Below, piece after piece: positions 2,839 to 52,210 of a DNA stretch of 64,000 nt. The notes beneath the pieces are model-generated. The model saw only the letters and a program-made list of their open reading frames with translations. It did no database searches and was not told the DNA's origin. This stretch comes from a virus, in IMG/VR virus record IMGVR_UViG_3300025161_000006, positions 18,060-82,059 of that record. One strand, 5' to 3'. Within the stretch, counting starts at the first letter, position 1, and each line of letters opens with the position of its first letter. A program made the translations under genes and the position numbers.

Positions 2839-2846
2839 TCTAAGTT

Positions 2847-2881
2847 AATAGGGGAAGCCCTCATGGGCTTCTCCTATTTTT
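2847..2881 (+). terminator. Rho-independent terminator
   Basis: AATAGGGGAAGCCC-TCAT-GGGCTTCTCCTATTTTT hairpin plus T-tract right after the stop at 2838. Confidence 0.85.
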
Positions 2882-2908
2882 ATCTATAACTAATTAAACA
2901 TTACTATC

Positions 2909-3430
2909 ATGAATATAGACAATATTCAGTTTGGTGATGGCATAGCAGTAAGGGGTAAAGCATGGCTTAGTAGGGCCATCAGGTACTTTATGAAGCAATA
3001 CAAACCAGGAGTTAAGGATTACAGTCATAATGCTGTAATCATCAATATGTGGGGAGAGAAGTGGGTTGCTGAGGCTCTTGCCTGGGGAGTAAGATTAAGA
3101 CCCTTTGCTTATACTGAATATGCCCATAGTACAAACTGGGTTATCTTAAGAGATAAGAGGGGGTTTACTGAAGAGCAGATTAAGCGTATGAGCTGGAAGT
3201 GTGCCAGTCTGGCAGGTGTAAGGTATCAATATGAAAATTTGCCTACATGGATAATCAGGATTTGGCTTAAACTGAACCTTTTCAAAAGGAGAAATGAGAA
3301 GTCAATATATTGTTCTGAGCTTCTTGCAATTGCAATAAATGAAGCACATCCTGGTACATTTAAAGCACCTAATGCTATGTCACCAGCTGACCATATTGAT
3401 AGTGAAGTGTATGATATAATAGAACAGTAA
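2909..3430 (+). CDS. Permuted papain-like NlpC/P60 (YiiX/YebB-like) hydrolase
   Basis: His motif YSHNAV precedes Cys motif IYCSEL, followed by a C-terminal SPAD. This is the permuted NlpC/P60 order. Confidence 0.8.
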   Translation: MNIDNIQFGDGIAVRGKAWLSRAIRYFMKQYKPGVKDYSHNAVIINMWGEKWVAEALAWGVRLRPFAYTEYAHSTNWVILRDKRGFTEEQIKRMSWKCASLAGVRYQYENLPTWIIRIWLKLNLFKRRNEKSIYCSELLAIAINEAHPGTFKAPNAMSPADHIDSEVYDIIEQ

Positions 3431-3433
3431 GTT

Positions 3434-3799
3434 ATGGAACAGTCGTTTTTAGAAGCACTAAGATTGGGAGCAATAGATATATTGCACTCTGTAAATACAA
3501 AATTTCTTGTATTGTTCATTGTTATTATGTTTTTATTTAATGAAGCTATCAATCATCCTGAACTATGTCAATGGTTAAATTGGCTTCAGAAAGTGCCTAC
3601 AAGTATTAGAGTATTTGTGTCTGGTATTTTACTTGCTATTATATTTGCATTATTAGAAGGCTATAGAGATGCTGACAATATAAGAAAGTTGTTCTATGCT
3701 ATAGTTGTTGGCATGGTGATATGGAAGTTAGGAGTTAGTTATTTGTTTGATGCAATTAAGCAATGGTGGAACAAACTATGGAGTAGGGTGATACAATGA
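3434..3799 (+). CDS. Membrane protein, holin candidate
   Basis: 121 aa, three hydrophobic segments, lysis-region context. Confidence 0.45.
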   Translation: MEQSFLEALRLGAIDILHSVNTKFLVLFIVIMFLFNEAINHPELCQWLNWLQKVPTSIRVFVSGILLAIIFALLEGYRDADNIRKLFYAIVVGMVIWKLGVSYLFDAIKQWWNKLWSRVIQ

Positions 3800-4230
3800 A
3801 AGATGTTGTTAAGATTATCATTGATTGGCTTAAGACAAGAAGTAAGAATACTCTGGTAACATTGACATTGATAACACCACTTGTGGTGTATATTTCAGTG
3901 CCATTGTTATTTAGAGTAAGATACAACACAAAGGATATTGAAGAGTTGAAGTCTAAGGTAGAGATAATAAGTAAGCAACTTGATAATCTATATACTAGTG
4001 TAACACTTTACAAAGTATCACATTTAACCTCTGTAGTGAACTATGTAGATAATGCAATTACAATAGCACAAACTGAAGTTCTACTTGAGGTTAAGACTGA
4101 ACTTGAACGTATTGCTGATAAGTCAAATACTAATAATTGTAATGTGCAATCTGAGCTTGATAGGTGGGAGAGGGCAATAATCAGGAAGAACAGGATTGAT
4201 AGCACTAAGGTAAATATGAAAATGAAATAA
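3796..4230 (+). CDS. Membrane-anchored coiled-coil protein
   Basis: One N-terminal TM segment then a heptad-like region. ATGA overlap with the upstream gene. Confidence 0.5.
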   Translation: MKDVVKIIIDWLKTRSKNTLVTLTLITPLVVYISVPLLFRVRYNTKDIEELKSKVEIISKQLDNLYTSVTLYKVSHLTSVVNYVDNAITIAQTEVLLEVKTELERIADKSNTNNCNVQSELDRWERAIIRKNRIDSTKVNMKMK

Positions 4231-37917: not shown

Positions 37918-38169
37918 CTATTGGTCAAACTTCATTTGTTTGTAACATATTGTACATATGATTTTACCATCAACCACATCTATCTCTCGTGGTATAAAGC
38001 ACTGGCAATATTCTTCTTTTGGCATGCTCTCCAAAACTTTATACACCATCTGCTTTAACTTCTCTTTGAGAAGCTCAAAGTCACTATAACCCATTTTCCC
38101 TTCTGCTGATTGTACCATAAACTCTTGAGCAGTCTGCTCAACTAATTTATTTATATCTTTTTCTTCCAT
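37918..38169 (-). CDS. Hypothetical protein with a C-terminal zinc ribbon
   Basis: CQC...CTIC. N-terminus weakly resembles the 40274 and 40581 paralogs. Confidence 0.6.
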   Translation of the reverse strand: MEEKDINKLVEQTAQEFMVQSAEGKMGYSDFELLKEKLKQMVYKVLESMPKEEYCQCFIPREIDVVDGKIICTICYKQMKFDQ

Positions 38170-38193
38170 AGTTTTAATAGTTTAATGTTATAC

Positions 38194-38631
38194 TTAATCA
38201 CACTTTTTATATTTATAAATAACTTGTTCGAATAACTTCAGTTTAGCAATATCATTCTCAAGTTCTTTAATTTTAGATAGTACTGATTCAAGTGTGTCCT
38301 TTCTTCTTTTCAATAGTTTTCTATATGCTGGAGTCTTTGATGCCTCAAGAGTTGTGTAAAATTCCTTATCACTATGCCAGAAATATTGCGGGTAATCCGG
38401 GTTATCATTAAGCATTGCAACATATCTAAACATTTCTTTATTATCTGCCTGGGTCACAAGTAATCTACATGGCTCATGGTCTCTACAATTTCGGCATTCT
38501 ATATCATATAATATACAACCCTTATCATCTATAACATTACGAACAACATATCGAAATGTACCACCCTTCAGTAGGTCATATCCATACAATGTGTCACCGA
38601 CTTTTAGCTTTATTCTTTTTTCTTTATTCAT
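38194..38631 (-). CDS. Hypothetical protein, paralog family D (SH3/KOW-like N-terminus plus coiled coil)
   Basis: LKVGDTLYGY, CRNCRDHEPC. Paralog of 38628-39104. Confidence 0.65.
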   Translation of the reverse strand: MNKEKRIKLKVGDTLYGYDLLKGGTFRYVVRNVIDDKGCILYDIECRNCRDHEPCRLLVTQADNKEMFRYVAMLNDNPDYPQYFWHSDKEFYTTLEASKTPAYRKLLKRRKDTLESVLSKIKELENDIAKLKLFEQVIYKYKKCD

Positions 38632-39104
38632 AAGCTACCAGATTTAGTGGGTTCTTGACAATCTTTTATGAGCATATTTAACTTATTTATATCTTCCTCA
38701 AGCTCTTCAGCTTGCTTTTTCAACAACTCAAGTTTTTCTCCCTTGTGTCTTAGCATATGATTATATGCTGCAATTTTTGCATCTATAATAGTTAAGTAAT
38801 ATTTCTCATCTTCATGCCAGATATACTTACGTCCATCCTCATCCTCATCCTCATCCTCATCCTCATCGTCTAAGTCTATGTTAATTATTGTAGCATATTG
38901 AAATTTTTTCTCGTCATCAATTTGAGATATAAGTATCCTGCAATATTCTTCAGGGTCAGAATTTGTATATTCTATTTCATAGAGAATAGCATTTCCATAG
39001 TCTCTAATACCACAAACAGTATAAGTAGATATGTCATTCTTTATTGGTGAATACCCATACAGTATGTCACCAATTTTAAGTTTTATTATTTTTTCTGTAT
39101 CCAT
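38628..39104 (-). CDS. Hypothetical protein, paralog family D, with a poly-ED insertion
   Basis: LKIGDILYGY. Colinear with 38194-38631. Confidence 0.65.
   Translation of the reverse strand: MDTEKIIKLKIGDILYGYSPIKNDISTYTVCGIRDYGNAILYEIEYTNSDPEEYCRILISQIDDEKKFQYATIINIDLDDEDEDEDEDEDGRKYIWHEDEKYYLTIIDAKIAAYNHMLRHKGEKLELLKKQAEELEEDINKLNMLIKDCQEPTKSGSL
38834..38863. repeat. (CATCCT)5 in-frame hexanucleotide microsatellite
   Basis: Five perfect copies encoding EDEDEDEDED on the - strand. Confidence 0.9.
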
Positions 39105-39115
39105 AACTTAATTTT

Positions 39116-39367
39116 TTAAAGGTTATCATTTTCTATGACATCTAAAGAACCACTTAAATCTTTACCAACTATTTTATAGTCCCCCATTGCAATACTCATA
39201 TACAACATATTAAGTATATAATTACTGTTAGGAACAATCTGGTAAATATTCCCATTACTTAAATGAATAAGAATAGTTATCCCTTTAATTTCATTTTTAA
39301 AATTTTCAGAATCATTATTACCATCAGACTTCTCACTGGAAGTAACTTCCTTTTGTGCTTTACTCAT
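39116..39367 (-). CDS. Hypothetical protein
   Basis: Likely start MSKAQK at 39367 (ATGA overlap with the upstream stop). ORF open to 39433. Confidence 0.55.
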   Translation of the reverse strand: MSKAQKEVTSSEKSDGNNDSENFKNEIKGITILIHLSNGNIYQIVPNSNYILNMLYMSIAMGDYKIVGKDLSGSLDVIENDNL

Positions 39368-39783
39368 AATAATTTGATTTTTTTTGGTTTGTATATTCTT
39401 AATTTGGGGTAACGTTGTAAAAGATGTTCCCAATTAAGTTTTTCCAACATTTCTGCATTACAATATTTTATAAGTCTGGGATGATTACTCAGCAGCGTAT
39501 TCCAGTGATAATTATCCAATTTGTTCCAATCACAATACTTTGCGTATTGTGACTGATAAGATAATAAAACTGACCATTCATAACCATCTATTTCATCCCA
39601 ATTACAATGCTTTGCAAATTGTGTATATCCATGCCTAAGTCTCCACAACCTAAAATTAAGTGGGCATTTTTCAAAAACCTCCTGCAATGTTTTACAGGAA
39701 TAGTTAAATTTTATACCTTTCTTGCAAGCTCCATTGACTTCCCACTCTTTATGTAGCTCTTCGAGTGTATTAAAGGTTTTCAT
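39364..39783 (-). CDS. Trp/Cys 24-aa repeat protein, paralog B2
   Basis: Three CxWxxLxxxxWxxLLxxxP repeats. Paralog of 40878-41363. Confidence 0.7.
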   Translation of the reverse strand: MKTFNTLEELHKEWEVNGACKKGIKFNYSCKTLQEVFEKCPLNFRLWRLRHGYTQFAKHCNWDEIDGYEWSVLLSYQSQYAKYCDWNKLDNYHWNTLLSNHPRLIKYCNAEMLEKLNWEHLLQRYPKLRIYKPKKIKLL

Positions 39784-39810
39784 AATTCACTTTTTAATTT
39801 AACTTTTTAT

Positions 39811-40236
39811 TTAAAAATCTTTTGGTACATATTTCTCCCATTTATCCTTATGCTCGGAACAATACAGTACTAAAAATTTTAAATATCTCCAGTTAAATTT
39901 ATCAGGGTCAAACCACTTATCAAAATCATTATTAATATGATGCTTCTTACCAAATATGATTTTATCAGTCCTCCATTTATTTCCATCAGGGTCTTTAATT
40001 ACCTTAGCATCTTCTGGTATAGTTACCTCTCTAATCCATGTACCATAATCCAAAAATTTTACTAAGTTTTCATAGTCTGTGAAATAAAATCCACCAGGAA
40101 CGCATGAAGCGGTAGAGTCGTCATTAAATTCTTCTTCAAGAATGTTTAACCCATCCTCGTATGGGTAACCATGATGAATTTCATCTTTATTGGTTACCTT
40201 GTAGTAGATTTTAGTATAATCAAATTCTTCGTTCAT
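39811..40236 (-). CDS. Hypothetical protein, paralog A2 (conserved N-domain plus one WFDP repeat)
   Basis: Near-identical N-domain to 41374-41967 (FNDDSTASCVPGGFYFTDYENL). Confidence 0.75.
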   Translation of the reverse strand: MNEEFDYTKIYYKVTNKDEIHHGYPYEDGLNILEEEFNDDSTASCVPGGFYFTDYENLVKFLDYGTWIREVTIPEDAKVIKDPDGNKWRTDKIIFGKKHHINNDFDKWFDPDKFNWRYLKFLVLYCSEHKDKWEKYVPKDF

Positions 40237-40273
40237 ATTTTTTTTATTTTAAATTCGTACATAGTTTTAAGTT

Positions 40274-40567
40274 TTAAATATTATTTTTAAGCCAATTAAA
40301 CGCCCATTTAATCCCAGCTTTTAAGCCATCGTAATAATCCTCACTTTCATAGCCATAAGGTATGAGCTCATTTATTTGTTCTTCTACTTCAGCATCAGTT
40401 GGTAATTTCTTAATAATGCTTTCTATTACTTCATCAGCCATAGCAATTAAGGCATTAACGACGTCTTTCCTATCAAAATCAACTCCAAAGGTAGCTGGTG
40501 TATCTTTAGCAGTTATAAATTCAGAACACATTTGTTCTGCAAGCTGTTCGATTTTTTCCTGTGTCAT
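40274..40567 (-). CDS. Hypothetical protein, paralog C2
   Basis: TFG...DVVNALIAM...LP...LIP shared with 40581-40865. Confidence 0.65.
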   Translation of the reverse strand: MTQEKIEQLAEQMCSEFITAKDTPATFGVDFDRKDVVNALIAMADEVIESIIKKLPTDAEVEEQINELIPYGYESEDYYDGLKAGIKWAFNWLKNNI

Positions 40568-40580
40568 AGTTTTAAATTTC

Positions 40581-40865
40581 TTAAAGATTATCTGTAATTA
40601 AATCAAGCAAAGTTTGCATACCTAATCTAATGCCCTCTCGCAAATCCTCATTCTCACCCCCACTTAAATCAACCCATGGTATTAAGCGCTCCAACTCATC
40701 CTGGTCTGGAAGTGATTGCTTCACTTTTTCCATTGTTTCATAATGCATAGCAAGTAAAGCATCAATAATGTCTTCTTTTTCAACACTAATACCAAATGTT
40801 ACCCTAATACCAATATGCTCATAATATACTTGCATCGCAAGATTATCTATTTCTTGTGTTTTCAT
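40581..40865 (-). CDS. Hypothetical protein, paralog C1
   Basis: TFG...DIIDALLAM...LP...LIP. Confidence 0.65.
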   Translation of the reverse strand: MKTQEIDNLAMQVYYEHIGIRVTFGISVEKEDIIDALLAMHYETMEKVKQSLPDQDELERLIPWVDLSGGENEDLREGIRLGMQTLLDLITDNL

Positions 40866-40877
40866 AGTTATGCGAAT

Positions 40878-41363
40878 TTACTTTTTAAGTTTTTTATAGA
40901 AGTTCTTCAATGCAGGTTGATGCTTGACCAAAAATTTCCAATCTTTTTTACGCAATATAGTGAATTTATAATATTCAACAAATTGCGGTCTTTCAAGCAA
41001 TAATACAATCCAATCAAATCTATCTAATTTCTCCCAATTACAAATATTTGCAAATTGTGGTTGATGGGATACCAGATAAACCCAATTATATCCCTCAAGT
41101 TTATCCCATTGACACAGTTCAGCATATTTAGGCTGATGTGATAAAAGACTTGCCCAATCTATTCCACTTAATTTATCCCATGGACAATGTTCTTCAAACT
41201 GAACATAACCTCTGGAAAGTCTCCATAATCTTAATTTGAGTGGACACCTTTCAAATACTTCCTGTAAATTCTTACAATAATGATTGAATTCCTTACCTTC
41301 TTCACAAGACTCATTTATTTCCCACTCTTTATGGAGTTCTTCAAGTGTATTAAAGGTTTTCAT
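40878..41363 (-). CDS. Trp/Cys 24-aa repeat protein, paralog B1
   Basis: Four repeats. N-terminus MKTFNTLEELHKEWE identical to B2. Confidence 0.7.
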   Translation of the reverse strand: MKTFNTLEELHKEWEINESCEEGKEFNHYCKNLQEVFERCPLKLRLWRLSRGYVQFEEHCPWDKLSGIDWASLLSHQPKYAELCQWDKLEGYNWVYLVSHQPQFANICNWEKLDRFDWIVLLLERPQFVEYYKFTILRKKDWKFLVKHQPALKNFYKKLKK

Positions 41364-41373
41364 AATTCACTTT

Positions 41374-41967
41374 TTAATTTAACTTTTTATTTAAAATCTT
41401 TAAAGCATATTTTCGCCATTTATTTTTATGCTCGGAACAATATTCTTCTAAATATTCTGCATATTCCCAATTAAATTTTTCAGGGTCAAACCATTTGTCA
41501 AAATGTTGTGGACAATACACAACTAAATAATATGAATATTCCCAATTAAACTTTTCAGGGTCAAACCACTTATCAAAATATTTTGAACAATACATAGCTA
41601 AATAATGTAAATATTTCCAACTATATTTTTTAGGATTGAACCATTTGTCAAAATCATTTTTAATATGATATTTTTTACCCAATATAATTTTATCTGTCCT
41701 CCATTTATCACCTTCAGGGTCTTTTACCACTCTTGCATCTTCTGGTATTGTTATTTCTCTAATCCAAGTACCATAATCGAAAAATTTGGGCAAATTTTCA
41801 TAATCGGTAAAATAAAAACCACCAGGAACACAAGAAGCAGTTGAATCATCATTAAATTTTTGTTTAAGAATGTTTAACCCATCCTTGTACCGGTAACCAT
41901 TATGAATTTCATTCTTTTTAGTTACTTTGTAATAAGTTTTACTGTAGTCAAATTTTTCTTGTGCCAT
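41374..41967 (-). CDS. Hypothetical protein, paralog A1 (conserved N-domain plus three 25-aa WFDPEKFNW repeats)
   Basis: 197 aa with internal tandem repeats. Confidence 0.75.
   Translation of the reverse strand: MAQEKFDYSKTYYKVTKKNEIHNGYRYKDGLNILKQKFNDDSTASCVPGGFYFTDYENLPKFFDYGTWIREITIPEDARVVKDPEGDKWRTDKIILGKKYHIKNDFDKWFNPKKYSWKYLHYLAMYCSKYFDKWFDPEKFNWEYSYYLVVYCPQHFDKWFDPEKFNWEYAEYLEEYCSEHKNKWRKYALKILNKKLN
41430..41656. repeat. 75-bp coding tandem repeat, about 3 copies
   Basis: ATATT(C/T)CCAA recurs at 41461, 41536 and 41611. Confidence 0.85.
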
Positions 41968-42004
41968 AATTTAATTTTTTAAAGTTTATCCTTAATGGCA
42001 TTAC

Positions 42005-42238
42005 TTATTTATCCCAATTTCCAAATTCAATATAATCAGACCATGGTTCAGGAATTTCCATTATTTCATTGTTCCTAACAAAAAAGTTTTTGCTTGTAAA
42101 ATTATTTTCACAATTAATGTAAACTCCTTTTATTTTGGAGCTTTTCAATCTTGCTAATGAGTATATAACTATTTCTAAATCAGTCCCATACTCTTTTACC
42201 CAATTTTCCAAAAACGTTTGAAAAGTAGTTGTTTCCAT
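42005..42238 (-). CDS. Hypothetical protein
   Basis: 77-aa ORF with an ACT-ATG start context. Confidence 0.55.
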   Translation of the reverse strand: METTTFQTFLENWVKEYGTDLEIVIYSLARLKSSKIKGVYINCENNFTSKNFFVRNNEIMEIPEPWSDYIEFGNWDK

Positions 42239-42274
42239 AGTATCTTATATTTAATGTTATTGGTACTATTTTAA

Positions 42275-42628
42275 TTATAATTTTTTAACCAATGAATACG
42301 AATATTTATACTCCATAAACACTTCAAACCCATTACTAAAATATAGATTTACTGCTTTATAATTAGCTTTTTCAACCATTAAGGTAATAATGCTTAATTT
42401 TAACTTGTTTTTTACATAATCAAATATTTTATTGAGTAATTGTTTTCCATAACCTTTTCCTTGAAAGGGTTCAAATACTTCCAGATTACAAACTGATACG
42501 TAATTTTCATCAAAAAATTCATCTGGCAATTCAATGCTAAGTTCAGCTCTTGCAATCCAAGTACCATCTTCAAACAGTTTAAGTGAATGGTTTTTATTTG
42601 CAAGCTTATAAGCTTTAAGTGTTTTCAT
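42275..42628 (-). CDS. GNAT-family acetyltransferase
   Basis: LEV...FQGKGYGKQLL acetyl-CoA motif A, and N..AVNLY...GF. Confidence 0.9.
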   Translation of the reverse strand: MKTLKAYKLANKNHSLKLFEDGTWIARAELSIELPDEFFDENYVSVCNLEVFEPFQGKGYGKQLLNKIFDYVKNKLKLSIITLMVEKANYKAVNLYFSNGFEVFMEYKYSYSLVKKL

Positions 42629-42648
42629 ACTATACAGTATACATAGTA

Positions 42649-42957
42649 TTAAGGTAATATGTTTAGATAGTGAGTAACAAAGAAGTCATAAGCAGATAGC
42701 CCTGACTTCCTTACTTTCTCGTTGAATGTATTTACCATCTCTACTATGATAGCTTTGTTCTTTCTCATAATAGTAAATATCCTTGGGTCTTCACAGTTGT
42801 CAAGATAACATACATAGATAGTTTCGGACTTTGTTATGAAAGGCCAGGTTAAATTTTCATACTTATCTTTATGAGTAGAAATCTCCTCCTTTAGGATATT
42901 ATAGATTTCCTCATAAGGTGTTGGGGTAGTTACTTTAGGTAAATCTTTTGTGTTCAT
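42649..42957 (-). CDS. Hypothetical protein
   Basis: 102-aa ORF. Confidence 0.55.
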   Translation of the reverse strand: MNTKDLPKVTTPTPYEEIYNILKEEISTHKDKYENLTWPFITKSETIYVCYLDNCEDPRIFTIMRKNKAIIVEMVNTFNEKVRKSGLSAYDFFVTHYLNILP

Positions 42958-42968
42958 ATTTTAACTTT

Positions 42969-43238
42969 TTAAGGACGTTCATTATATGCATTTATTTGAG
43001 CCTTATCAATCTTTTTTGGTAGCTCTTCAGAATAGGCATTGCCAATATTAATATGTTTTCCTTCATAAAATAAAAGGGTATATACATCCATTATATCAGC
43101 AGGAATATGAAAATAATCTCCCCCGAAGCAATAAACAAAGGTAGCCTCGTTATTTTGTTGCTCAAGGAATGTAACTTTATCTGTGTCAATAATAAAAGTT
43201 TTTTTGCTAAACTGCGAATAAATTTCAATTTTCTTCAT
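42969..43238 (-). CDS. Hypothetical protein
   Basis: 89-aa ORF. Confidence 0.55.
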   Translation of the reverse strand: MKKIEIYSQFSKKTFIIDTDKVTFLEQQNNEATFVYCFGGDYFHIPADIMDVYTLLFYEGKHINIGNAYSEELPKKIDKAQINAYNERP

Positions 43239-43255
43239 GATTGAACTGTTTTAGA

Positions 43256-43558
43256 TTATACATTAAATATGTTAGATGCCTCATAACCAGCTTTGCTTAG
43301 TATATCTTTTATTATATTATCAGCATATTCCTTTTTTAATTGTTTTAAAATTTCACTTCCAATTAAAGAATCTGAAGAAAACGTATTCTTAAGCGAAAAA
43401 TCAAATTCTTGGCCATTTTCTTTTGTTCCTTTAATGCGTATATGCCGTAAGTGATAAGGTAGAATTTCTATGAATTTCTTTATTAATTCATAAAGCTCTT
43501 GCTTAGCTTGGTAGGTAGCAAGCGCATCAATAGCCTCATTTAATCTGTTGGTTTCCAT
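43256..43558 (-). CDS. Hypothetical protein
   Basis: 100-aa ORF. Confidence 0.55.
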   Translation of the reverse strand: METNRLNEAIDALATYQAKQELYELIKKFIEILPYHLRHIRIKGTKENGQEFDFSLKNTFSSDSLIGSEILKQLKKEYADNIIKDILSKAGYEASNIFNV

Positions 43559-43622
43559 AGTTGTAAATTTTTAAGATTAATAACCTAATTTATCTGGGGT
43601 TGTAATTAACCATTTTTATATA

Positions 43623-43946
43623 CTATCTCCAGGATTCTGGGCAGATAACAATTACAGTAGCCCCTTCACGTTCTAATACATACTTATGTCCAGGTTGTCC
43701 TTTTAAATCATTAAAGTAACATTCACTTATATAAGCATGTTCAATTTCAGGTAATTCATTTTGGCAATCTTCTACTTCTTTCTTATCTACTACCTCAAAA
43801 TCAGTTGGAAGTACTAATTTACTTCCTAAAGGTGTTATTACAGGTAATCCTTCTTGATTCCCCCAATGACAAGATATTAGAAGACTAGACTCTGGATATA
43901 TAACTATGCCAGAACTTTTATTGGTAACATCATATAGTCTTTTCAT
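43623..43946 (-). CDS. Hypothetical protein
   Basis: 107-aa ORF. Confidence 0.55.
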   Translation of the reverse strand: MKRLYDVTNKSSGIVIYPESSLLISCHWGNQEGLPVITPLGSKLVLPTDFEVVDKKEVEDCQNELPEIEHAYISECYFNDLKGQPGHKYVLEREGATVIVICPESWR

Positions 43947-43957
43947 AAGGTAAAGAT

Positions 43958-44188
43958 TTAAAGAGATTTAAGAATACTCTTTAGCTCATCTTCTATATTT
44001 TCAAAAGATAAGGCTAAAATACATGAGGCAAAAGCTAATGTTTCACCTGAATATCTCTTACATAATTCTCTGTAAGCTTCTGATTTTTTGTCACAGGAGA
44101 ATACCAACTCTGCACAAAGGTCAATAATCTCATCCTTTGTTTCTTTAGGAATATCTAAGGCTTCCCAAAGTGTTTTTTCTTTTTCTAT
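43958..44188 (-). CDS. 76-codon ORF with an ATA start (or start-lost pseudogene), paralog of 63344-63589
   Basis: IEKEKTLWEALDIPKETKDEIIDLCAELVFSCDKKSEAYRELCKRYS... with no ATG and an in-frame TAA 6 codons upstream. Confidence 0.55.
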   Translation of the reverse strand: MEKEKTLWEALDIPKETKDEIIDLCAELVFSCDKKSEAYRELCKRYSGETLAFASCILALSFENIEDELKSILKSL

Positions 44189-45855: not shown

Positions 45856-46857
45856 TTATTCAAGGTCTTCTGGACTTATGAACACCTCATCATTTATTGA
45901 GTTAGGTGCAGAAGTCCAATCATTTGTTTTAATCCTTCTAATAGCTTCAGCAAGCAATGACTTGATAGACTTGCCTTCTTTAGCATCATAATAGAATATA
46001 GTATGAGCAAGCTTTGGTGGAAGATAATATGCTGTAACATTTCTTCTTCCTGTCTTCTCTATTGCTATGAAAGCAGAAGTACGTATCATTGGTTTTGAGC
46101 TATCTGAAGATAAGTGCTTGGTTAGAAGGTACTCATAGAAAGCCAGTTGATAATGTAGACTATACTTCTTGATGCTGGTTATAAAATCACCTGTATAAGT
46201 CTTTATATCAACCACACGATATGAACCGTCCTTGTACTTAATGACCATATCCAGCAATCCCTTGATTGGATATTTATCATAAGTCTCTTCACAGACATAC
46301 TCTCCTACAAGGGGCACTTGATACTCAATAGATTCTACATCTTTGAATATCTCTGACCCGGTCTTGAAAGATTCATATGCTTCAAGTAACTGCATGGCTT
46401 TCTCATGGTCATCTCTTGTGATGATGACTCTATCTGTTGACTCGGCAATGTACTTTACATCAATATAAGATTTTGCCTTAGCAACAGCATTAAGTATAGT
46501 AGCAGCCTTCCATGATGGATTAAACCCAACCCTATCCCTTGCTGTAAAGATGAGAGTTTCTTCATCCAGACCAGAGTCTTTATTCTCAATCTTCAACCTT
46601 ACAATCTCATCAGCAAAGTCTTTCATACCTGGTGTTAGCCTCGGCAAGTCCACAATGATAAATCTATCTTCTACCTCTTCAGGACTTGTGATAAGAGCAT
46701 CTACATAAGACCCAAAGTCAAGTGCCTGACTCTTTCTCTCCTCTTTGTTAGTTAACATCTCATATACTCCATAGGGGTCCTTTGCTAATTGTATTAGCAT
46801 GCTTGCATTGATACCCTCAATTTTGGAGTATTCTTCATACTTACTACTCTTACTCAT
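45856..46857 (-). CDS. PD-(D/E)XK exonuclease (RecE/Exo VIII-like)
   Basis: NASML, FGSYVD, KGLLD...VVDIKT and YQLAFY motifs. Confidence 0.85.
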   Translation of the reverse strand: MSKSSKYEEYSKIEGINASMLIQLAKDPYGVYEMLTNKEERKSQALDFGSYVDALITSPEEVEDRFIIVDLPRLTPGMKDFADEIVRLKIENKDSGLDEETLIFTARDRVGFNPSWKAATILNAVAKAKSYIDVKYIAESTDRVIITRDDHEKAMQLLEAYESFKTGSEIFKDVESIEYQVPLVGEYVCEETYDKYPIKGLLDMVIKYKDGSYRVVDIKTYTGDFITSIKKYSLHYQLAFYEYLLTKHLSSDSSKPMIRTSAFIAIEKTGRRNVTAYYLPPKLAHTIFYYDAKEGKSIKSLLAEAIRRIKTNDWTSAPNSINDEVFISPEDLE

Positions 46858-47749
46858 TGGTTGTTTGCTTTAAATTATTACCTATTGTTATTACTTCAGT
46901 TGCAATTTTCTCAAGTACTTCAGGACGAATTACATGAAGTAGCTTATCAGCCAGTCCATCCACACGTTCAACAAGTATGCAGGAGTCATTACCACTTGTA
47001 GCAAGTTTCTTATTCATAACTTTTGCTGAGTAAATTAAGTTTCCTACTACATTCCGCATAAGCCTATTAATGTACTTACCATACTTAAGGAAGAACGTGT
47101 CAACATAGATGATGTTAGAGTATTGCATAGATAATGTAAAATGGTTGCTGTACTGATGCTTTGCTACGTATGCTTTTAACAATATAAAAGGCATTATTAT
47201 CCTTGGGATATAAATCTTCTTATCATCCACAATGAGATAATCAAATGCATTATTAATAATGATGGGAGCACTTTGAGTTCCTGCCATATACATAGCACCA
47301 CATGCTGTTACTGCTACCTCTCCTAATGTTAAAGGGCTGTGAAGTGGAAAGATAGCACGCTGCTCAGGTTTAACTGAAACTGCTAATCTGGGATAACTTA
47401 ATCTGGTAACCTCACTAGATGTAGTAGCCCATTCGTATGGTCCTGGTAATATGATAGCTTCCCAATTAGTAATCTTTATTGTACTATCTGAATAATAACA
47501 GATGCTATACCTCTTTGGTAGTTGACTGGTTAATATATAAAACATAGGATACCTTGGATGGCCTTCTCTGTCATAATCAACAAGTACACTACCATTAAGA
47601 CCTGATATCATAGGAACCTCAGCTTTGTCCGAGGCTCTAGTTACGCGCTCTGTGCTGACAATAACCCGTGCTCTACTATTCATTTTGTCAATATCAACCA
47701 TTTTATCATCCTCATAAGGCGCTCTGATTATCTTGGGTGCTGTTATCAT
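46850..47749 (-). CDS. Hypothetical protein coupled to the E1 gene
   Basis: 299 aa, overlaps both neighbours. Confidence 0.6.
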   Translation of the reverse strand: MITAPKIIRAPYEDDKMVDIDKMNSRARVIVSTERVTRASDKAEVPMISGLNGSVLVDYDREGHPRYPMFYILTSQLPKRYSICYYSDSTIKITNWEAIILPGPYEWATTSSEVTRLSYPRLAVSVKPEQRAIFPLHSPLTLGEVAVTACGAMYMAGTQSAPIIINNAFDYLIVDDKKIYIPRIIMPFILLKAYVAKHQYSNHFTLSMQYSNIIYVDTFFLKYGKYINRLMRNVVGNLIYSAKVMNKKLATSGNDSCILVERVDGLADKLLHVIRPEVLEKIATEVITIGNNLKQTTNE

Positions 47750-48488
47750 GGGTAAAATCCTCCAATGTTAATAGTTTACGTGTAAACATCATACCCTGTT
47801 CAGAATAATATACAGGTACTACATAGTCACTGCCGTGTTTATATGCTATGAAAGCAGTTATTCCATGCACAATCTTTGCAGCTATATTAGCTGCAAAGTG
47901 TGTAGTAGACTTGAATGAACATGGCAAGTCCATACCTTCACCTTCAGCAAATAGACTTCCTTTATAGAATTCTATAATTCTATCATATACATCTGCAGGT
48001 ACAGAATTTGGTCCTGATACAAAGTAAATCTCAAAAGACTCTGCAGTTAGTCTTGCATCTATGAGCATCCCAATCTCTTCTGTATGAGTCATGTTTCTCC
48101 ATGTATCATACAGAGTTTGCCTGGATGTAATGCTGTCTGTAGCTGCAATGACTATATCATAATCACCTACATGATAATCACGTTCAATCCAATTAGCACG
48201 TGATTCTACAACTATATTTGAAGGAGCATATAGTGCAATAGCTCTACCTATTGCATTTACCTTGAGGCTCCCCACATCTCTTATTGAATATAGCTGTCCT
48301 GCCAGATTCAAAGGTGATACATAATCAAAGTCTACAAGCATTATTCTGTCGAATATGCCTGTTCTTGCAAGAAAGAGAGCTGTCCATGAGCCTATGCTAC
48401 CAACACCTACTATAGCTGCACTTAGTTTATCCTGGGATGACTTTGCCCAGGGTGCAGCGCTAAATCTAAATGTATGCTGTTGTTCCAT
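47712..48488 (-). CDS. ThiF/MoeB/E1-like adenylating enzyme
   Basis: GVGSIG, DFDYVSPLNLAGQ, K, TDSITSR and DARL motifs. Single Cys190 (LPCSFKST) and no Zn CxxC pairs. Confidence 0.92.
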   Translation of the reverse strand: MEQQHTFRFSAAPWAKSSQDKLSAAIVGVGSIGSWTALFLARTGIFDRIMLVDFDYVSPLNLAGQLYSIRDVGSLKVNAIGRAIALYAPSNIVVESRANWIERDYHVGDYDIVIAATDSITSRQTLYDTWRNMTHTEEIGMLIDARLTAESFEIYFVSGPNSVPADVYDRIIEFYKGSLFAEGEGMDLPCSFKSTTHFAANIAAKIVHGITAFIAYKHGSDYVVPVYYSEQGMMFTRKLLTLEDFTHDNSTQDNQSAL

Positions 48489-48499
48489 ATGAAAGTAGT

Positions 48500-49402
48500 T
48501 TAATAATCAAATCCTCGTCCATATAAGTCTCTCCATACAGAGTCTTCATGGGTAAGACCCGTTGCTTTATTTATTTTCGAGCCTTTTGTAGTATACTCTT
48601 TCACTGGCTCAGGCTGCCAATGATAAGCAGGGTTATAACCTGTATTATAAGAAGGATACTTGGGTTTGCTGTTTGTTGTAGCCATGACAGAGAGAGCTTC
48701 TGTGAAAGCATTTTCTTCAGGTTCTTCCATTTCTACATTAACATCAAATGTCTCTATTCCTATTGTTTCCTCAGTAGATTCTTCTGTAGCAATAGTTTTT
48801 CTTAGTGGTTCTCCTGTGATAGGATTCTTACACTCAGCATAACCTGTTTTTCTTATCACTACACTCTCTTTAACTGGAATAGCTATCTTAGCTACTACGT
48901 CAAGATTATTGTTTACAATGACAGACAGGTATGTTTCATACACGTCAACATTATTAATAAGTTCAGTTGTATCTGTAGTACTGAAGAATACAGCCATGGT
49001 GTTATGAGAATGTATCAATCCATACTTGCACTCTTGCAAGTGTTCGTATTTATCGTACAGTTCAATAAGCTCTTTCTCCAGTGTTGCAGATACAGCTGCT
49101 CCTGTGCCTGTAGCAATAGGGATAAGCTCAACAGCAGTCATAAGAATCTCTACTTTACCTTTGGTTGGTGAAGATACTTCTGACTTGTAGAATAATAGTC
49201 CCTGCCACTCAATATTATAGTTAGTAAGGCACATAAGTTGTATCTTACTTACAATATCACTTGGTATGAAGAGTTTTGCTCTAATGTATTCAAGTTCTTT
49301 AGTGAATAAGTTTTCACCCTGGTACCTAGCTTCTACTTTTGCTTCGTACCCTGCGTACTTTTTTGTGTTCATAGTAGCCGTTTTTTTCTTTTGTTTTTTC
49401 AT
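48500..49402 (-). CDS. JAB/MPN+ metalloprotease (deubiquitinase-like)
   Basis: EWQG...HSHNTMAVFFSTTD is the E...HxH-x7-S-x2-D motif. Start may be MNTKKY at 49372. Confidence 0.9.
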   Translation of the reverse strand: MKKQKKKTATMNTKKYAGYEAKVEARYQGENLFTKELEYIRAKLFIPSDIVSKIQLMCLTNYNIEWQGLLFYKSEVSSPTKGKVEILMTAVELIPIATGTGAAVSATLEKELIELYDKYEHLQECKYGLIHSHNTMAVFFSTTDTTELINNVDVYETYLSVIVNNNLDVVAKIAIPVKESVVIRKTGYAECKNPITGEPLRKTIATEESTEETIGIETFDVNVEMEEPEENAFTEALSVMATTNSKPKYPSYNTGYNPAYHWQPEPVKEYTTKGSKINKATGLTHEDSVWRDLYGRGFDY

Positions 49403-50444
49403 AATACTGACTGTTTACGTAACTTACTGGTACTGATATATCTTCTGCTGAAATGTTTATACATGAAGCTATTTGGTCAAATTCTGCCACCACAGGTTTA
49501 GTACCTATAACATTGAATACAGCATCTTCTGGTGCTTCCATATCTATGGTTACATCTATAGTAGTGTCTTTAAACTCTATGGTAGTATCTGATAGTGACT
49601 CTATTGTATAAATACACTCCTTCCGTATACTTTCTATATCATTAGACGACAGGTTGGATATTATCTTATTTAACTGTTTACCTGTATAAGTATCTTCTAA
49701 CCTGCCAACAACATGATAGTAATCTCCAACACCTGGTATAGACAGTTCAAATATGTGTTCTTTTTGTACAGGCTTATTATTATATGCTTGCATGAACTTA
49801 CTAAGAGAGTCTGTAACAAATTGTGAGTAAAGTCTATACACCCCAACAGTATTTTGTGTCCTTATTATTGGATATAAGTTGATAGCAAGACTTTCAATCT
49901 TTGACTGCAACGAGTCTACTAATATATTTTCTATTGTAGCATTAAACTTTTCTTTCTCATGTGGTATATACAACCAATTATAGAATTTTCTTAGTATATC
50001 TCTAACCACAGTTCCCTGACACATGAGCCCTGCATTACGTCTAATAGTAGATACATGAGGATGTATAAACAAAGCACCATCACTTACTTCATAGTACTTA
50101 AATCTGGACCTATTTATGCTTATTGTAATATCACGTATGTTAAGTGCAGCAACATATTTCTCGAGGCTTGAGTAAAGAAACACAATAGGCATATGTATAG
50201 TTACAAACATGTCATGCAGTGTATAGGTAGCAGTAGTTTCGACATCTATCATTTCAACAGAAGGGAAATATACTATAATATCTATGACACCAGAACCTCT
50301 GTGAGTATGGATATCAACTCTTTCCTCACCAAAGATGTCATAAAATACTTTCCGGGTCATATCAGTAAGTATATCCATTATTCTATCTACCATTTCATCC
50401 TTAGTAAGTAACTCAGGCTGAGGAGTATTGTTTGTCTGTTCCAT
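49326..50444 (-). CDS. Divergent E2 (UBC-like) protein
   Basis: FIHPHVS...LMCQG (His128, Cys142) resembles the E2 HPN...C signature. Lies between the Ubl and JAB genes. Confidence 0.65.
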   Translation of the reverse strand: MEQTNNTPQPELLTKDEMVDRIMDILTDMTRKVFYDIFGEERVDIHTHRGSGVIDIIVYFPSVEMIDVETTATYTLHDMFVTIHMPIVFLYSSLEKYVAALNIRDITISINRSRFKYYEVSDGALFIHPHVSTIRRNAGLMCQGTVVRDILRKFYNWLYIPHEKEKFNATIENILVDSLQSKIESLAINLYPIIRTQNTVGVYRLYSQFVTDSLSKFMQAYNNKPVQKEHIFELSIPGVGDYYHVVGRLEDTYTGKQLNKIISNLSSNDIESIRKECIYTIESLSDTTIEFKDTTIDVTIDMEAPEDAVFNVIGTKPVVAEFDQIASCINISAEDISVPVSYVNSQYYEKTKEKNGYYEHKKVRRVRSKSRS

Positions 50445-50465
50445 TGTTAATGAATTTAAGGTTAG

Positions 50466-50500
50466 ATAAGAAAAGGGGGTATATTTCTATACCCCCTTTC
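50466..50500 (-). terminator. Rho-independent terminator after the Ubl gene
   Basis: - strand AAAGGGGGTATA-GAAA-TATACCCCCTTT then TCTT. 12-bp stem with a GNRA loop. Confidence 0.8.
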
Positions 50501-50512
50501 AGATGACAGAAA

Positions 50513-50767
50513 CTATTTAATCCCCGAATCAACTTTCTTTGGACTCATGTAGATTTTAATCTCAGCTTCATTGCTAAGAGGACTCGATGGACCAAGTTCT
50601 CTAATACCATGAGAATCCTTCAGAAAGAATGTGACCTTGCTGGCCAGTTCATCATCCAGAATATCATTTTCTTTCAGCTGATTGAGAAATCCTGCAAGAG
50701 TAGCTGCTTCAGTCTGTACCATCTGTGTACTTAAGTTGGTCGTGTTGACCAGTTTTACTGTTACCAT
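50513..50767 (-). CDS. Ubiquitin-like (beta-grasp) small protein
   Basis: 84 aa with a beta-beta-alpha-beta...beta pattern (VTVKLV, TQMVQT, TLAGFLNQL, IKIYMSP). C-tail KKVDSG-IK. Operon context agrees. Confidence 0.7.
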   Translation of the reverse strand: MVTVKLVNTTNLSTQMVQTEAATLAGFLNQLKENDILDDELASKVTFFLKDSHGIRELGPSSPLSNEAEIKIYMSPKKVDSGIK

Positions 50768-51210
50768 AGTTTGTTTGTTTTTGGTTTTACAATATTATCT
50801 TTTAACAAAATTGCAATGTATACTCCCGGGTTTTCTTTTGATATAGTACTATACATACCATTTATTTCATAAGGCATGGGCAGCATCTCCTCTACATTAT
50901 CATCCTCTATCCATCCATTCCTTACTATAAGGTCTTGTACAGTCTGTACCATATTCACCCAGTCATACTTTTGTTTTGTCTTTCTTGCGAAATGTATTCT
51001 AATTACAATAGGTTTCTCCAGAGAGATTGCTGTCTCTCTGAATTGTGCAATAAGACTTTCATCATCCCATAAATGTTTTGTAGCCTTCAGATAAGTAGCT
51101 AAAGCTTTAGATGGAAAACTAGATGCTCTCCTGTTCTTGGATATTATCCTGCTATTCTTACCTGATGGAACACTTCCGGGGATAAAACATGAGAATAATA
51201 CATCATTCAT
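50761..51210 (-). CDS. RusA-like Holliday junction resolvase
   Basis: VPSGKN, YDWVN...QD...IEDDN motifs. Confidence 0.8.
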   Translation of the reverse strand: MNDVLFSCFIPGSVPSGKNSRIISKNRRASSFPSKALATYLKATKHLWDDESLIAQFRETAISLEKPIVIRIHFARKTKQKYDWVNMVQTVQDLIVRNGWIEDDNVEEMLPMPYEINGMYSTISKENPGVYIAILLKDNIVKPKTNKLW

Positions 51211-52210
51211 ATACTTGATTTATTAAGTGATTGACTATATTCTTAGCAAAGTTAAATCCCATTCCCTTGATGCAGTCAGATATATCCTTAAGTTCCAATG
51301 CTATAGGCAATGCAATGTATGGTATGCTATACATATTGCTAAACTTCTTCGCATTCTCAAGTCCTGTTGTATCATTATCCCAGAAGATTAGCAATCTTTT
51401 GAACCTTTGCATTTGCTTATGCATATACTTCTCAGGTAGCCATGTAGTTTCACTCACTGTAGCAATAGCCACATATCCAAGTTCATAAAGGCACATTACA
51501 TCTTTGAGAGATTTAGTCACAATCAGTAAGTCACCTGACTTAGGAAGCACTCCTTCACCCTGTACTACATCTCCTCCATTGCTGAACCATTTATATTCAG
51601 ACTTTGGCTGATATATCTTTCTTCTGAATATGTCCTCATCCCAGTAATATTCATAGCTGTAAGCAAGCTTATCAGCTTTATGCATCTTGCCATTTATCCA
51701 GAAGTGGGTAATAGGTTTAACACCAAATAACTTTAGTGTGTTGATAGGTATTCTGTAATTTCCATACCAATAGTCATAGTCATCCTTATTAAATTCCCTA
51801 CTCTTTATCTGTATGACTGTGGTATTTCTATACTTAATACTACCAGACCCATTACCATTAAGATATATACTGGGATTTATAACTCTCTTTGAATACTCAG
51901 GAAAGCTATGTATTAATCCCAGGGAGAAATCTTCATTAATCTTCTCCAGAGCCTGGCTATATGTAAGGTTAAATTTGGCCATCACATAGCCAATAGCTCT
52001 GAAGGATTCTCCTGTGCCAAAGTCCTTATATAAAGGTCTTCCGCCAATATCTGATATAACACAGCTGGGGTTCTTATCTTCTCTAAACTCACTATGAAAT
52101 TTTCTGTTTAGCTGTTTAAAAGGCTCACAGTATTTAGCGAATATATCATATTCACTAATGTGCAAAAGAACTTGTTCATAGGTGAGCTCTCCATTGAAAC
52201 CCCACTCCAT
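51203..52210 (-). CDS. DnaG-like primase (crAss type)
   Basis: SEFREDKNPS, YKDFG, TOPRIM TKSLKD / WDND / KDISD. Confidence 0.88.
   Translation of the reverse strand: MEWGFNGELTYEQVLLHISEYDIFAKYCEPFKQLNRKFHSEFREDKNPSCVISDIGGRPLYKDFGTGESFRAIGYVMAKFNLTYSQALEKINEDFSLGLIHSFPEYSKRVINPSIYLNGNGSGSIKYRNTTVIQIKSREFNKDDYDYWYGNYRIPINTLKLFGVKPITHFWINGKMHKADKLAYSYEYYWDEDIFRRKIYQPKSEYKWFSNGGDVVQGEGVLPKSGDLLIVTKSLKDVMCLYELGYVAIATVSETTWLPEKYMHKQMQRFKRLLIFWDNDTTGLENAKKFSNMYSIPYIALPIALELKDISDCIKGMGFNFAKNIVNHLINQVYE

Follow-up and report, generated by a model that had tools for sequence, protein, structure and literature searches.

The virus in IMG/VR record IMGVR_UViG_3300025161_000006 carries, within the 64,000-nucleotide stretch analysed here (positions 18,060 to 82,059 of the record, hereafter the window), five tightly packed genes on the minus strand (46850-50767) that appear to encode a ubiquitin-like (Ubl) protein and enzymes that act on it. 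In order of transcription, genes for a primase and a RusA-like resolvase are followed by those for an 84-amino-acid (aa) Ubl protein (Ubl84), a 372-aa His/Cys protein (X372), a JAB metallopeptidase (JAB300), an E1-type adenylating enzyme (E1_258) and a fifth protein (Y299), and then by an exonuclease gene (Table 1). An original prediction, made from the DNA letters and a list of open reading frames (ORFs), had described this arrangement as an apparently complete conjugation operon with Ubl, E2, JAB and E1 genes, lying between RusA/primase and an exonuclease. The ORF list bears out the five co-oriented genes and every motif named in them, and the flanks are as proposed (50761-52210 upstream and 45856-46857 downstream). 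Working from sequence, we find good support for a real and strongly conserved phage module that includes a Ubl precursor, a JAB protein and an E1. We also lean towards the view that the module is fixed among the replication genes of crAss-like phages as a phage-encoded cascade for Ubl activation and conjugation.

Table 1. Genes and features of the five-gene block and its flanks, in order of transcription (window coordinates)
Feature	Coordinates	Strand	Remarks
Primase	51203-52210	-	Upstream flank
RusA-like resolvase	50761-51210	-	Upstream flank, between primase and Ubl84
Ubl84, 84-aa ubiquitin-like precursor	50513-50767	-	Predicted domain end S81-G82, then two-residue tail IK
Terminator-like hairpin	50464-50500	-	GC-rich stem, GAAA loop and U-rich tail, right after the Ubl stop codon
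X372, His/Cys protein, candidate E2-like carrier	49326-50444	-	H128-P-H130...C142-x-G144; fast-evolving C-terminal half
JAB300, JAB/MPN+ metallopeptidase	48500-49402	-	E65, H131-S-H133-x7-S141-x2-D144
E1_258, single-domain ThiF/MoeB-type adenylating enzyme	47712-48488	-	GxGxxG loop; lone Cys C190 at the crossover-loop position
Y299, fifth gene, translationally coupled	46850-47749	-	Position conserved, sequence poorly so
PD-(D/E)XK exonuclease	45856-46857	-	Downstream flank; 8-nt overlap with Y299

The same module recurs in related viruses. Of 403 pattern matches obtained by scanning IMG/VR with an alignment of the E1, 322 code for a relative of the enzyme; the best 80 loci were retained. One of these (L004) has no complete E1 ORF and 8 were dropped for short upstream DNA, leaving 71 loci with at least 4.2 kb of upstream DNA. 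When neighbouring ORFs were grouped by BLAST clustering, a single family was found at each of the three positions upstream of the E1 (JAB at -1, X at -2 and Ubl at -3), and several clusters at +1. JAB is present in 71/71 loci, the X family in 70, the Ubl family in 69 and the primase in 62; the gene order matches that of the window in 69/71, so that the synteny across Crassvirales that the original prediction had proposed to look for is indeed there. The two exceptions are L006 and L003, the latter a 90%-identical twin of the window, with copies that fall into the same clusters as those of the window. A +1 gene exists in 76 loci, and in every one of them it begins between -92 and +49 nt relative to the E1 stop codon. 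Ubl84 and X372 each match the hidden Markov model (HMM) of the family at the same position at 16.4 bits, and these matches are specific among the eight window proteins tested.

Relative to L003, the ratio of nonsynonymous to synonymous polymorphism (pN/pS) is 0.19 for Ubl, 0.19 for JAB, 0.26 for E1, 0.57 for X and 0.48 for Y. Together with the recurring gene order, values below 1 in all five genes argue that the block is more than a chance assembly. The higher ratios of X and Y, compared with 0.19-0.26 in the other three, are what would be expected if these two proteins carry specificity. The closest named relatives of the E1 are in Crassvirales, for example cr106_1 (Steigviridae), Bacteroides intestinalis phages and Flavobacterium phage FpV4. 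The source record (82,059 bp, CheckV completeness 99%) also contains a 4,338-aa ORF, as is typical for genes of the virion RNA polymerase in crAss-like phages.

Existing databases recognise little of the block. Among the window's five proteins only the E1 is identified outright by Pfam or NCBIfam. Ubl84, X372 and Y299 have no match in Pfam, NCBIfam, PHROGs or PADLOC, and searches against 5.8 billion and 1.84 billion proteins return nothing beyond their own clusters (identity 83% or higher), for Y299 in the larger set as well. With the entire block as query, blastn found no match among phages. As gene families, X, Ubl, JAB and E1 are represented in PHROGs without a function, and Y299 is in no PHROG.

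Scanning bacterial and archaeal genome contigs with the E1 alignment gave 17 loci, and all five that were examined proved to be the same phage module inside contigs of metagenome-assembled genomes (MAGs); no bridge to bacterial systems came to light among these five. L087, on a 373,651-bp contig of a Puia sp. MAG, holds a full crAss-type replication block with primase, Ubl, X, JAB, E1 and, further along, exonuclease, and L091, on a Bacilli MAG contig of 639,747 bp, has recognisable genes for Ubl, X, JAB and E1 only. Both are either integrated crAss-like elements or chimeric assemblies. Matches to plasmids in tblastn were ordinary ThiF/MoeB proteins, a YcaO-TfuA cluster and a type II CBASS.

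The E1 is the most readily classified component. E1_258 belongs to the ThiF family (Pfam PF00899, E = 1e-19, 71.1 bits against a cut-off of 28.1; NCBIfam ThiF, 2e-19), and its best sequence matches are ThiF, MoeB and TcdA. In an alignment of 67 E1 sequences (A8), R8, F9, W14, G28, G30, I32, S34, D55, N61, G64, Q65, K76, D118, R123, D144, R146, Y175 and C190 are invariant. These positions cover the adenylation residues (the G-x-G-x-x-G loop, D55, K76 and D118) and the lone Cys190 pointed out in the original prediction, which is the sole Cys of the protein. Profile-profile comparison with hhalign relates the E1 family to E. coli ThiF (251 aa) at 97.3% over residues 2-192, to MoeB at 97.4%, and to PRTRC ThiF at 98.7-98.8% over about 200 columns. 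C190 falls on the Cys of the P-S-C-S motif of PRTRC ThiF and on C184 of ThiF, the residue that forms the acyl-disulfide with ThiS, which places it at the crossover-loop position. The PADLOC models for Cap2 'E1-E2' proteins match the adenylation part of the E1 only.

JAB300 has the E...H-x-H-x7-S-x2-D motif of JAB/MPN+ (JAMM) proteases, and the claim that this catalytic motif is intact extends to the family: among 72 sequences, E65 is kept in 69, H131 in 69, H133 in 71, S141 in 72 and D144 in 72. Database matches of the single protein are weak (Prok-JAB, E = 0.06, below the Pfam cut-off; PRTRC_A, E = 0.19; the AMSH-like protease sst2, E = 0.61, aligned across the HxH...S..D strip). It matches phrog_16107 at 2.2e-12 and is homologous to the JAB genes of cr106_1 (E = 2e-21) and FpV4 (E = 3e-24). 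We predict that JAB300 matures the Ubl, and it possibly removes the Ubl from targets as well. JAB300 has a second in-frame Met at residue 11; a start there would cut its overlap with X372 (49326-49402) to 47 nt. By protein size (E1 258 aa, JAB 300 aa), the block of the window is among the most minimal: in many relatives the E1 is extended at its N terminus by about 50-180 aa (ORFs of 290-440 aa, e.g. L029:6494-7705), and their JAB proteins have 350-600 aa compared with 300 in the window.

Ubl84 ends in KKVDSG-IK and aligns end to end, through the terminal SG, with the HMM of the phage family at its position (E = 3.4e-6 against eight sequences). In an alignment of 66 family members (A6), 48 of which are in the unannotated phrog_15560, an N-terminal domain of about 80 residues ends in K-x-K-S-G, with the Gly present in 65/66 and the preceding Ser in 63/66. 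Every one of the 66 continues past this position with a tail of 1-207 aa (median 136; at most 10 aa in 10 members and more than 60 aa in 55). A conserved Gly at the C-terminal end of the domain followed by a tail is the arrangement of Ubl modifiers that are made as precursors, and cleavage after the Gly is predicted. Because no family member stops at the Gly, processing would be obligatory, and the case for Ubl84 as an obligate precursor is well supported. The secondary-structure propensity of the family, a crude average over the alignment, runs strand-strand-helix-strand-(helix)-strand; this order is compatible with a beta-grasp, the fold that we infer for Ubl84.

A relative offers a view of how domain and tail are joined. 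In cr106_1 (L001 1734-3937), a 92-aa Ubl ORF ending in K-S-G-K-F is separated by an HNH endonuclease gene from a 130-aa ORF that clusters with tail-bearing proteins of the Ubl family; the same stretch is found in L029 at 2734-3937. This looks like a homing-endonuclease insertion that has split the precursor gene at the predicted cleavage site. That the HNH gene parts them in cr106_1 shows that Ubl domain and tail are separable modules.

The Ubl gene is also set apart within the block. The 68-nt interval between Ubl84 and X372 is the only sizeable gap, and all other junctions overlap or nearly abut: X372 and JAB300 share 77 nt, E1_258 starts 11 nt past JAB300, and Y299, the coupled 299-aa gene of the original prediction, overlaps the E1 gene by 38 nt. 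Directly after the Ubl stop codon lies a terminator-like hairpin; the RNA of 50435-50525 (minus strand) folds at -23.5 kcal/mol (z = -2.14), with 4/200 shuffled sequences folding as well. Among 53 distinct Ubl-to-X junctions of relatives, with gaps of 40-400 nt, z is below -2 in 51 (median -4.3) and a hairpin with a U-rich tail is present in 48; a simpler test finds a hairpin in 57/61 junctions. A consensus terminator scan does not have the hairpin after Ubl84 among its listed sites, and a sigma-70 promoter scan gave 22 sites compared with 28.5 expected from shuffles, no better than chance. With this hairpin after Ubl and the remaining junctions so tightly joined, the Ubl may be expressed in excess over its enzymes, or its gene may end an upstream transcription unit.

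X372 is the candidate for an E2-like carrier. Its conserved part is the N-terminal region of about 190 residues, and the best domain in its match to the family HMM (11.6 bits, compared with 16.4 for the whole protein) covers residues 17-187, including the H-x-H...C strip. In an alignment of 68 family members (A7), 56 of which fall in the unannotated phrog_15310, H130, C142, G144 and P192 are invariant, and N67, R112, Y126, H128, S129, E186, S187 and G190 are at least 90% conserved. An invariant Cys (C142) with a conserved His (H130) shortly upstream is what an E2 should have, a resemblance at the level of the motif only. The strip H-P-H-V-x7-G-L-M-C-Q-G resembles G-N-V-C-M-G of Prok-E2_D and H-Q-Y...G-A-L-C-L-E of a Cap2, and also the UBC active-site strip (PROSITE PS00183).

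Several other routes to the nature of X372 gave nothing. An exhaustive phmmer search returned only its own cluster, tblastn against 50,697 phage records had no match, and feature matches in the ESM Atlas (0.84) were at noise level. The Atlas holds no model for X372 itself, and that of the X relative of cr106_1 is poor (pLDDT 0.36), with structural matches at TM scores of at most 0.44, to unnamed clusters. A forced long alignment of the X N-terminal domain with Prok-E2_D pairs the two Cys-x-Gly strips at a probability of 0.4%, and we do not count it. We also discarded a permuted papain-like or LRAT-type enzyme: one of 68 members matched YiiX (E = 0.075), a single chance-level match, and a His-Cys spacing of 12 residues does not suit that fold.

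Y299 was likewise considered as the E2 and rejected. The +1 genes of relatives form several BLAST clusters, three of them linked by hhalign (87.5% and 97.9%) and none linked to Y299. The four +1 clusters that were aligned (Y8, Y13, Y16 and Y17) have no invariant Cys or His, and nine representatives have no Pfam match.

The cascade that we favour would run as follows; its chemical steps, the beta-grasp and UBC folds and the targets are what we infer from the components described above. Ubl84 would be made as a precursor and cut by JAB300 after Gly82, releasing the two-residue tail (1-207 residues in relatives), with the terminator-like hairpin after its gene keeping it in excess over the enzymes. 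The E1, which is of the ThiF type and, as in ThiF, MoeB and UBA5, probably forms a homodimer, would adenylate the freed Gly and then take the Ubl onto Cys190. In the least certain step, the Ubl would be handed to Cys142 of X372, which would represent a new His/Cys family acting as E2-like carrier, and it would end up on lysines of phage or host proteins. These targets could be chosen by the C-terminal half of X372, which evolves fast, and by the variable Y299, and JAB300 could reverse the mark.

A number of observations weigh against this reading, most of them concerning X372. None of the 68 X-family members matches an E2 family in Pfam or NCBIfam at E values up to 1, and neither X372 nor its family has a match in PADLOC or in a profile search of the PDB. 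With hhalign, the X family scores 0.3-0.4% against Prok-E2_D and 0.3% against one Cap2 E2 domain. A six-frame search of the genome with Prok-E2_D and Prok-E2_A found nothing, nor did one with UQ_con, a model that was also silent in all control genomes and therefore says nothing here. The His-to-Cys spacing is 12-14 residues in X372 and more variable in relatives, longer than in classical E2s, and about 55 residues separate an F-P motif from the H-x-H in X372. For the Ubl family, the comparisons with Prok_Ub (hhalign 0.1%) and with ThiS/MoaD (29 Bacteroidota sequences plus E. coli ThiS; 1.5%, E = 0.034) are not significant, the latter though collinear over 68 columns. In the E1, finally, the Arg of the N-x-x-R-Q motif, a phosphate-binding residue present in ThiF, MoeB and PRTRC ThiF, is Gly64 (N61-L-A-G64-Q65), with Gly in 67/67 phage sequences. 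The ATP site described as intact in the original prediction thus stands as regards GxGxxG, D55, K76 and D118 and departs from the canonical site at this position. Since an invariant Gly replaces the canonical Arg, the ATP chemistry of the enzyme may differ, and the invariant N-terminal R8-F9...W14 may compensate for the missing residue.

In view of these points we put the chance that X372 is an E2-like carrier at a little under one half. Of the complete Ubl/E2/JAB/E1 operon originally claimed, the E1, the JAB, the tailed Ubl and the synteny hold up, and X372 is linked to E2 by no search; completeness is a reasonable hypothesis and not a demonstrated parts list.

Comparison with known systems places the block near several of them and inside none: judged from its proteins and gene order, it belongs to none of Bil, Bub, PRTRC and Cap2/Cap3. 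Its parts list of Ubl, E2, JAB and E1 and its gene order recall Bil (BilABCD), in which, lacking an E3, the E2 is proposed to pick targets directly (passages on Bil in PMC11601596). According to the same passages, the Bil E1 consists of tandem domains plus a Cys domain, whereas the phage E1 is one 258-aa domain of ThiF size; with its single adenylation domain the phage enzyme is not of the Bil type. Bil is moreover a host defence, in contrast to a phage-encoded block in which the E2 fold of X372 is putative. A type II CBASS Cap2/Cap3 operon, which has an E2-E1 fusion beside a CD-NTase, is not indicated either: the phage E1 has no N-terminal E2 domain. This comparison rests on the E1, the CD-NTase not having been searched for in the genome.

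PRTRC is the nearest system by E1 homology and by gene sizes and order. Like the phage block, it has five genes, among them those for a JAB, for a small E1 with one domain and for a small Ubl that is encoded on its own and ends in Gly (Iyer et al. 2006, row 6d). In 9/12 Bacteroidota loci the PRTRC order is a Ubl of 72 aa, an unannotated protein of about 390 aa, an E2 of about 240 aa and an E1 of about 265 aa, compared with 84, 372, 300 and 258 aa in the phage. In these 9 of the 12 loci (L105-L116), the conserved protein encoded between the Prok_Ub and Prok-E2_D genes has 380-408 aa, is without a model in Pfam and NCBIfam, and probably corresponds to the 'novel alpha-helical protein' of Iyer et al. 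2006. The differences are nevertheless substantial. None of the phage proteins qualifies under the PRTRC models TIGR03735-03738 (E1 31.4 bits against 144.75, JAB 11.3 against 101.8, no match for Ubl and X), and among hhalign comparisons of the phage families with PRTRC proteins from 11 Bacteroidota loci, only E1 against ThiF is significant; Ubl, X and JAB reach no PRTRC model. The PRTRC Ubl ends exactly in T-K-G without a tail, whereas the phage Ubl is always tailed. The gene before the E1 encodes an E2 in PRTRC and a JAB in the phage block, PRTRC ThiF retains the N-x-x-R-Q Arg where the phage E1 has Gly, and PRTRC is located on plasmids and conjugative elements, not phages.

By precursor processing, the nearest system is Bub. 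In type I Bub (BubAB, BubCD and BubE; formerly 6E.1), a precursor Ubl is cut by a JAB after a conserved Gly, the E1 is minimal and of the homodimer type, and there is a fifth conserved gene, as in the phage block (passages on Bub in PMC11601596). Cleavage immediately after the conserved Gly was shown for BubAB and BubCD by Ye et al. 2024 (PMC11601596). Bub differs in its Ubl-E2 and JAB-E1 fusions, which are separate genes in the phage, and in an E1 and E2 that lack Cys and use Tyr and Ser oxyesters (PMC11601596), in contrast to the invariant Cys190 and Cys142 here. A Pfam scan of window proteins, Y299 among them, gave no match to DUF6527, the Bub protease.

A Ubl and a JAB have been seen together in phages before. 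In lambda and T1, TAPI has a Ub-like domain with a conserved Gly at its end, then a linker and a C-terminal domain, and TAPK combines JAB with NlpC/P60; cleavage of lambda TAPI by the TAPK JAB was predicted by Iyer et al. 2006. No other phage-encoded Ubl and JAB pair is known to have been described before. That pair has no E1 and sits in a tail-assembly context, in contrast to the crAss-like block, which has an E1 and lies among replication genes. The original prediction knew of no characterised phage-encoded pathway, and the literature on crAss-like phages agrees: searching it for ThiF, ubiquitin-like and MPN proteins, with subscription papers and supplementary files outside the search, so that annotation tables may already name some of the genes, we found no paper on the cassette. 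Nothing relevant turned up on PRTRC in connection with ubiquitin either.

The three well-supported parts could also work without an E2. SAMPylation-type systems need only Ubl, JAB and E1, so these parts would suffice for a minimal system like archaeal SAMP/UbaA/JAMM, in which the E1 alone passes the Ubl to its targets; X372 and Y299 would then be targets, adaptors or merely linked proteins of the replication module. Two components of such systems, SAMP1 and HvJAMM1, are named in published abstracts. That no search finds an E2 signature in X is in keeping with E2-independent tagging, but X is nearly as fixed as JAB (70/71 loci), its gene overlaps the JAB start by 77 nt, and its His/Cys/Gly strip, invariant in 68/68, points to an enzyme or carrier rather than to a passive target. 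We regard tagging by the E1 alone as unlikely.

The E1 and JAB might instead prepare a sulfur carrier. JAB-trimmed and E1-adenylated Ubl would become a thiocarboxylate, and X372, as a His/Cys enzyme, would use its sulfur to modify a nucleotide, a cofactor, DNA or tRNA. Such trimming is known from QbsD, which acts on QbsE. The block shares with ThiS-ThiF and MoaD-MoeB an E1 of the ThiF family, with TcdA also among its best matches, the alignment of C190 with ThiF C184, and a small Ubl with a C-terminal Gly. Clusters of JAB, ThiS/MoaD and E1 for sulfur assimilation are described in a section of Iyer et al. 2006. A six-frame HMM search of the whole 82-kb genome, on the other hand, found no ThiG, MoaE, rhodanese, cysteine desulfurase (Aminotran_5) or PP-loop ATPase, families for which control genomes were positive in 11-14/14. 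Host enzymes could supply the sulfur, so this absence lowers the standing of a sulfur carrier without removing it. It also bears out much of the earlier statement that sulfur and tRNA-thiolation genes are absent, which holds genome-wide for ThiG, MoaE and PP-loop proteins; for ThiS/MoaD (PF02597), the negative comes from a Pfam scan of eight listed window proteins, no six-frame search having been made. The Ubl itself points away from the ThiS/MoaD pathway: it has a single Gly after Ser and then a tail, compared with a free GG in all 25 Bacteroidota ThiS/MoaD sequences printed in full (25/25). Tails of more than 60 aa in 55/66 members are like those of ubiquitin-type precursors, and the JAB and two more conserved genes are further differences from ThiS-ThiF and MoaD-MoeB. 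Altogether a sulfur carrier seems to us quite improbable.

The phage proteins might, alternatively, disturb the Ubl-based immunity of the host (Bil, type II CBASS or Bub) without conjugating anything, for instance with the JAB stripping host Ubl from phage proteins or with Ubl and E1 decoys titrating host enzymes. Host Bil tags a phage tail protein, and Cap3 of CBASS is a JAB that reverses conjugation (passages in PMC11601596), so there would be something to counter; X and Y, moreover, are fast-evolving, as arms-race proteins are. A decoy, however, needs no jointly conserved adenylation residues, E1 Cys and obligate C-terminal processing. The block also lies beside replication genes in 62/71 loci and is near-universal, unlike most anti-defence genes, which are patchy. 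This makes counter-defence without conjugation very unlikely.

Conjugation of the phage's own Ubl is the reading to which we return. As to what it would serve, regulation of the replisome or subversion of host defences, the two roles put forward in the original prediction, are speculation. A bolder version of the cascade is that crAss-like phages, among them cultured phages from the gut and phages of fish pathogens, operate a complete Ubl cascade of their own, with phrog_15310 as an unrecognised E2-like family, directed by the C-terminal half of X and by Y during replication; we offer this tentatively, as possible and still rather doubtful. Outside the block, GC content drops to 0.29-0.31 across 38001-44000, compared with about 0.36-0.39 elsewhere; the ORFs there are short, on the minus strand and downstream of the replication genes.

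The block offers a compact, separately encoded set of E1, JAB and Ubl for biochemistry, together with a candidate for a new family of carriers. The same block is present in cultured relatives (FpV4-type Flavobacterium phages and Bacteroides intestinalis phages), which provide a tractable route to the targets. According to the overview in PMC11601596, the only cases of ubiquitin-type conjugation demonstrated in prokaryotes to date are weapons of the host against phages: Bil, type II CBASS and Bub. If the bolder reading is true, the block, which adjoins the primase in a phage group among the most abundant in the human gut and in environmental Bacteroidota, would be the first counterpart of these host systems in a virus of bacteria, and ubiquitin-type tagging would be found on both sides of the phage-host conflict.

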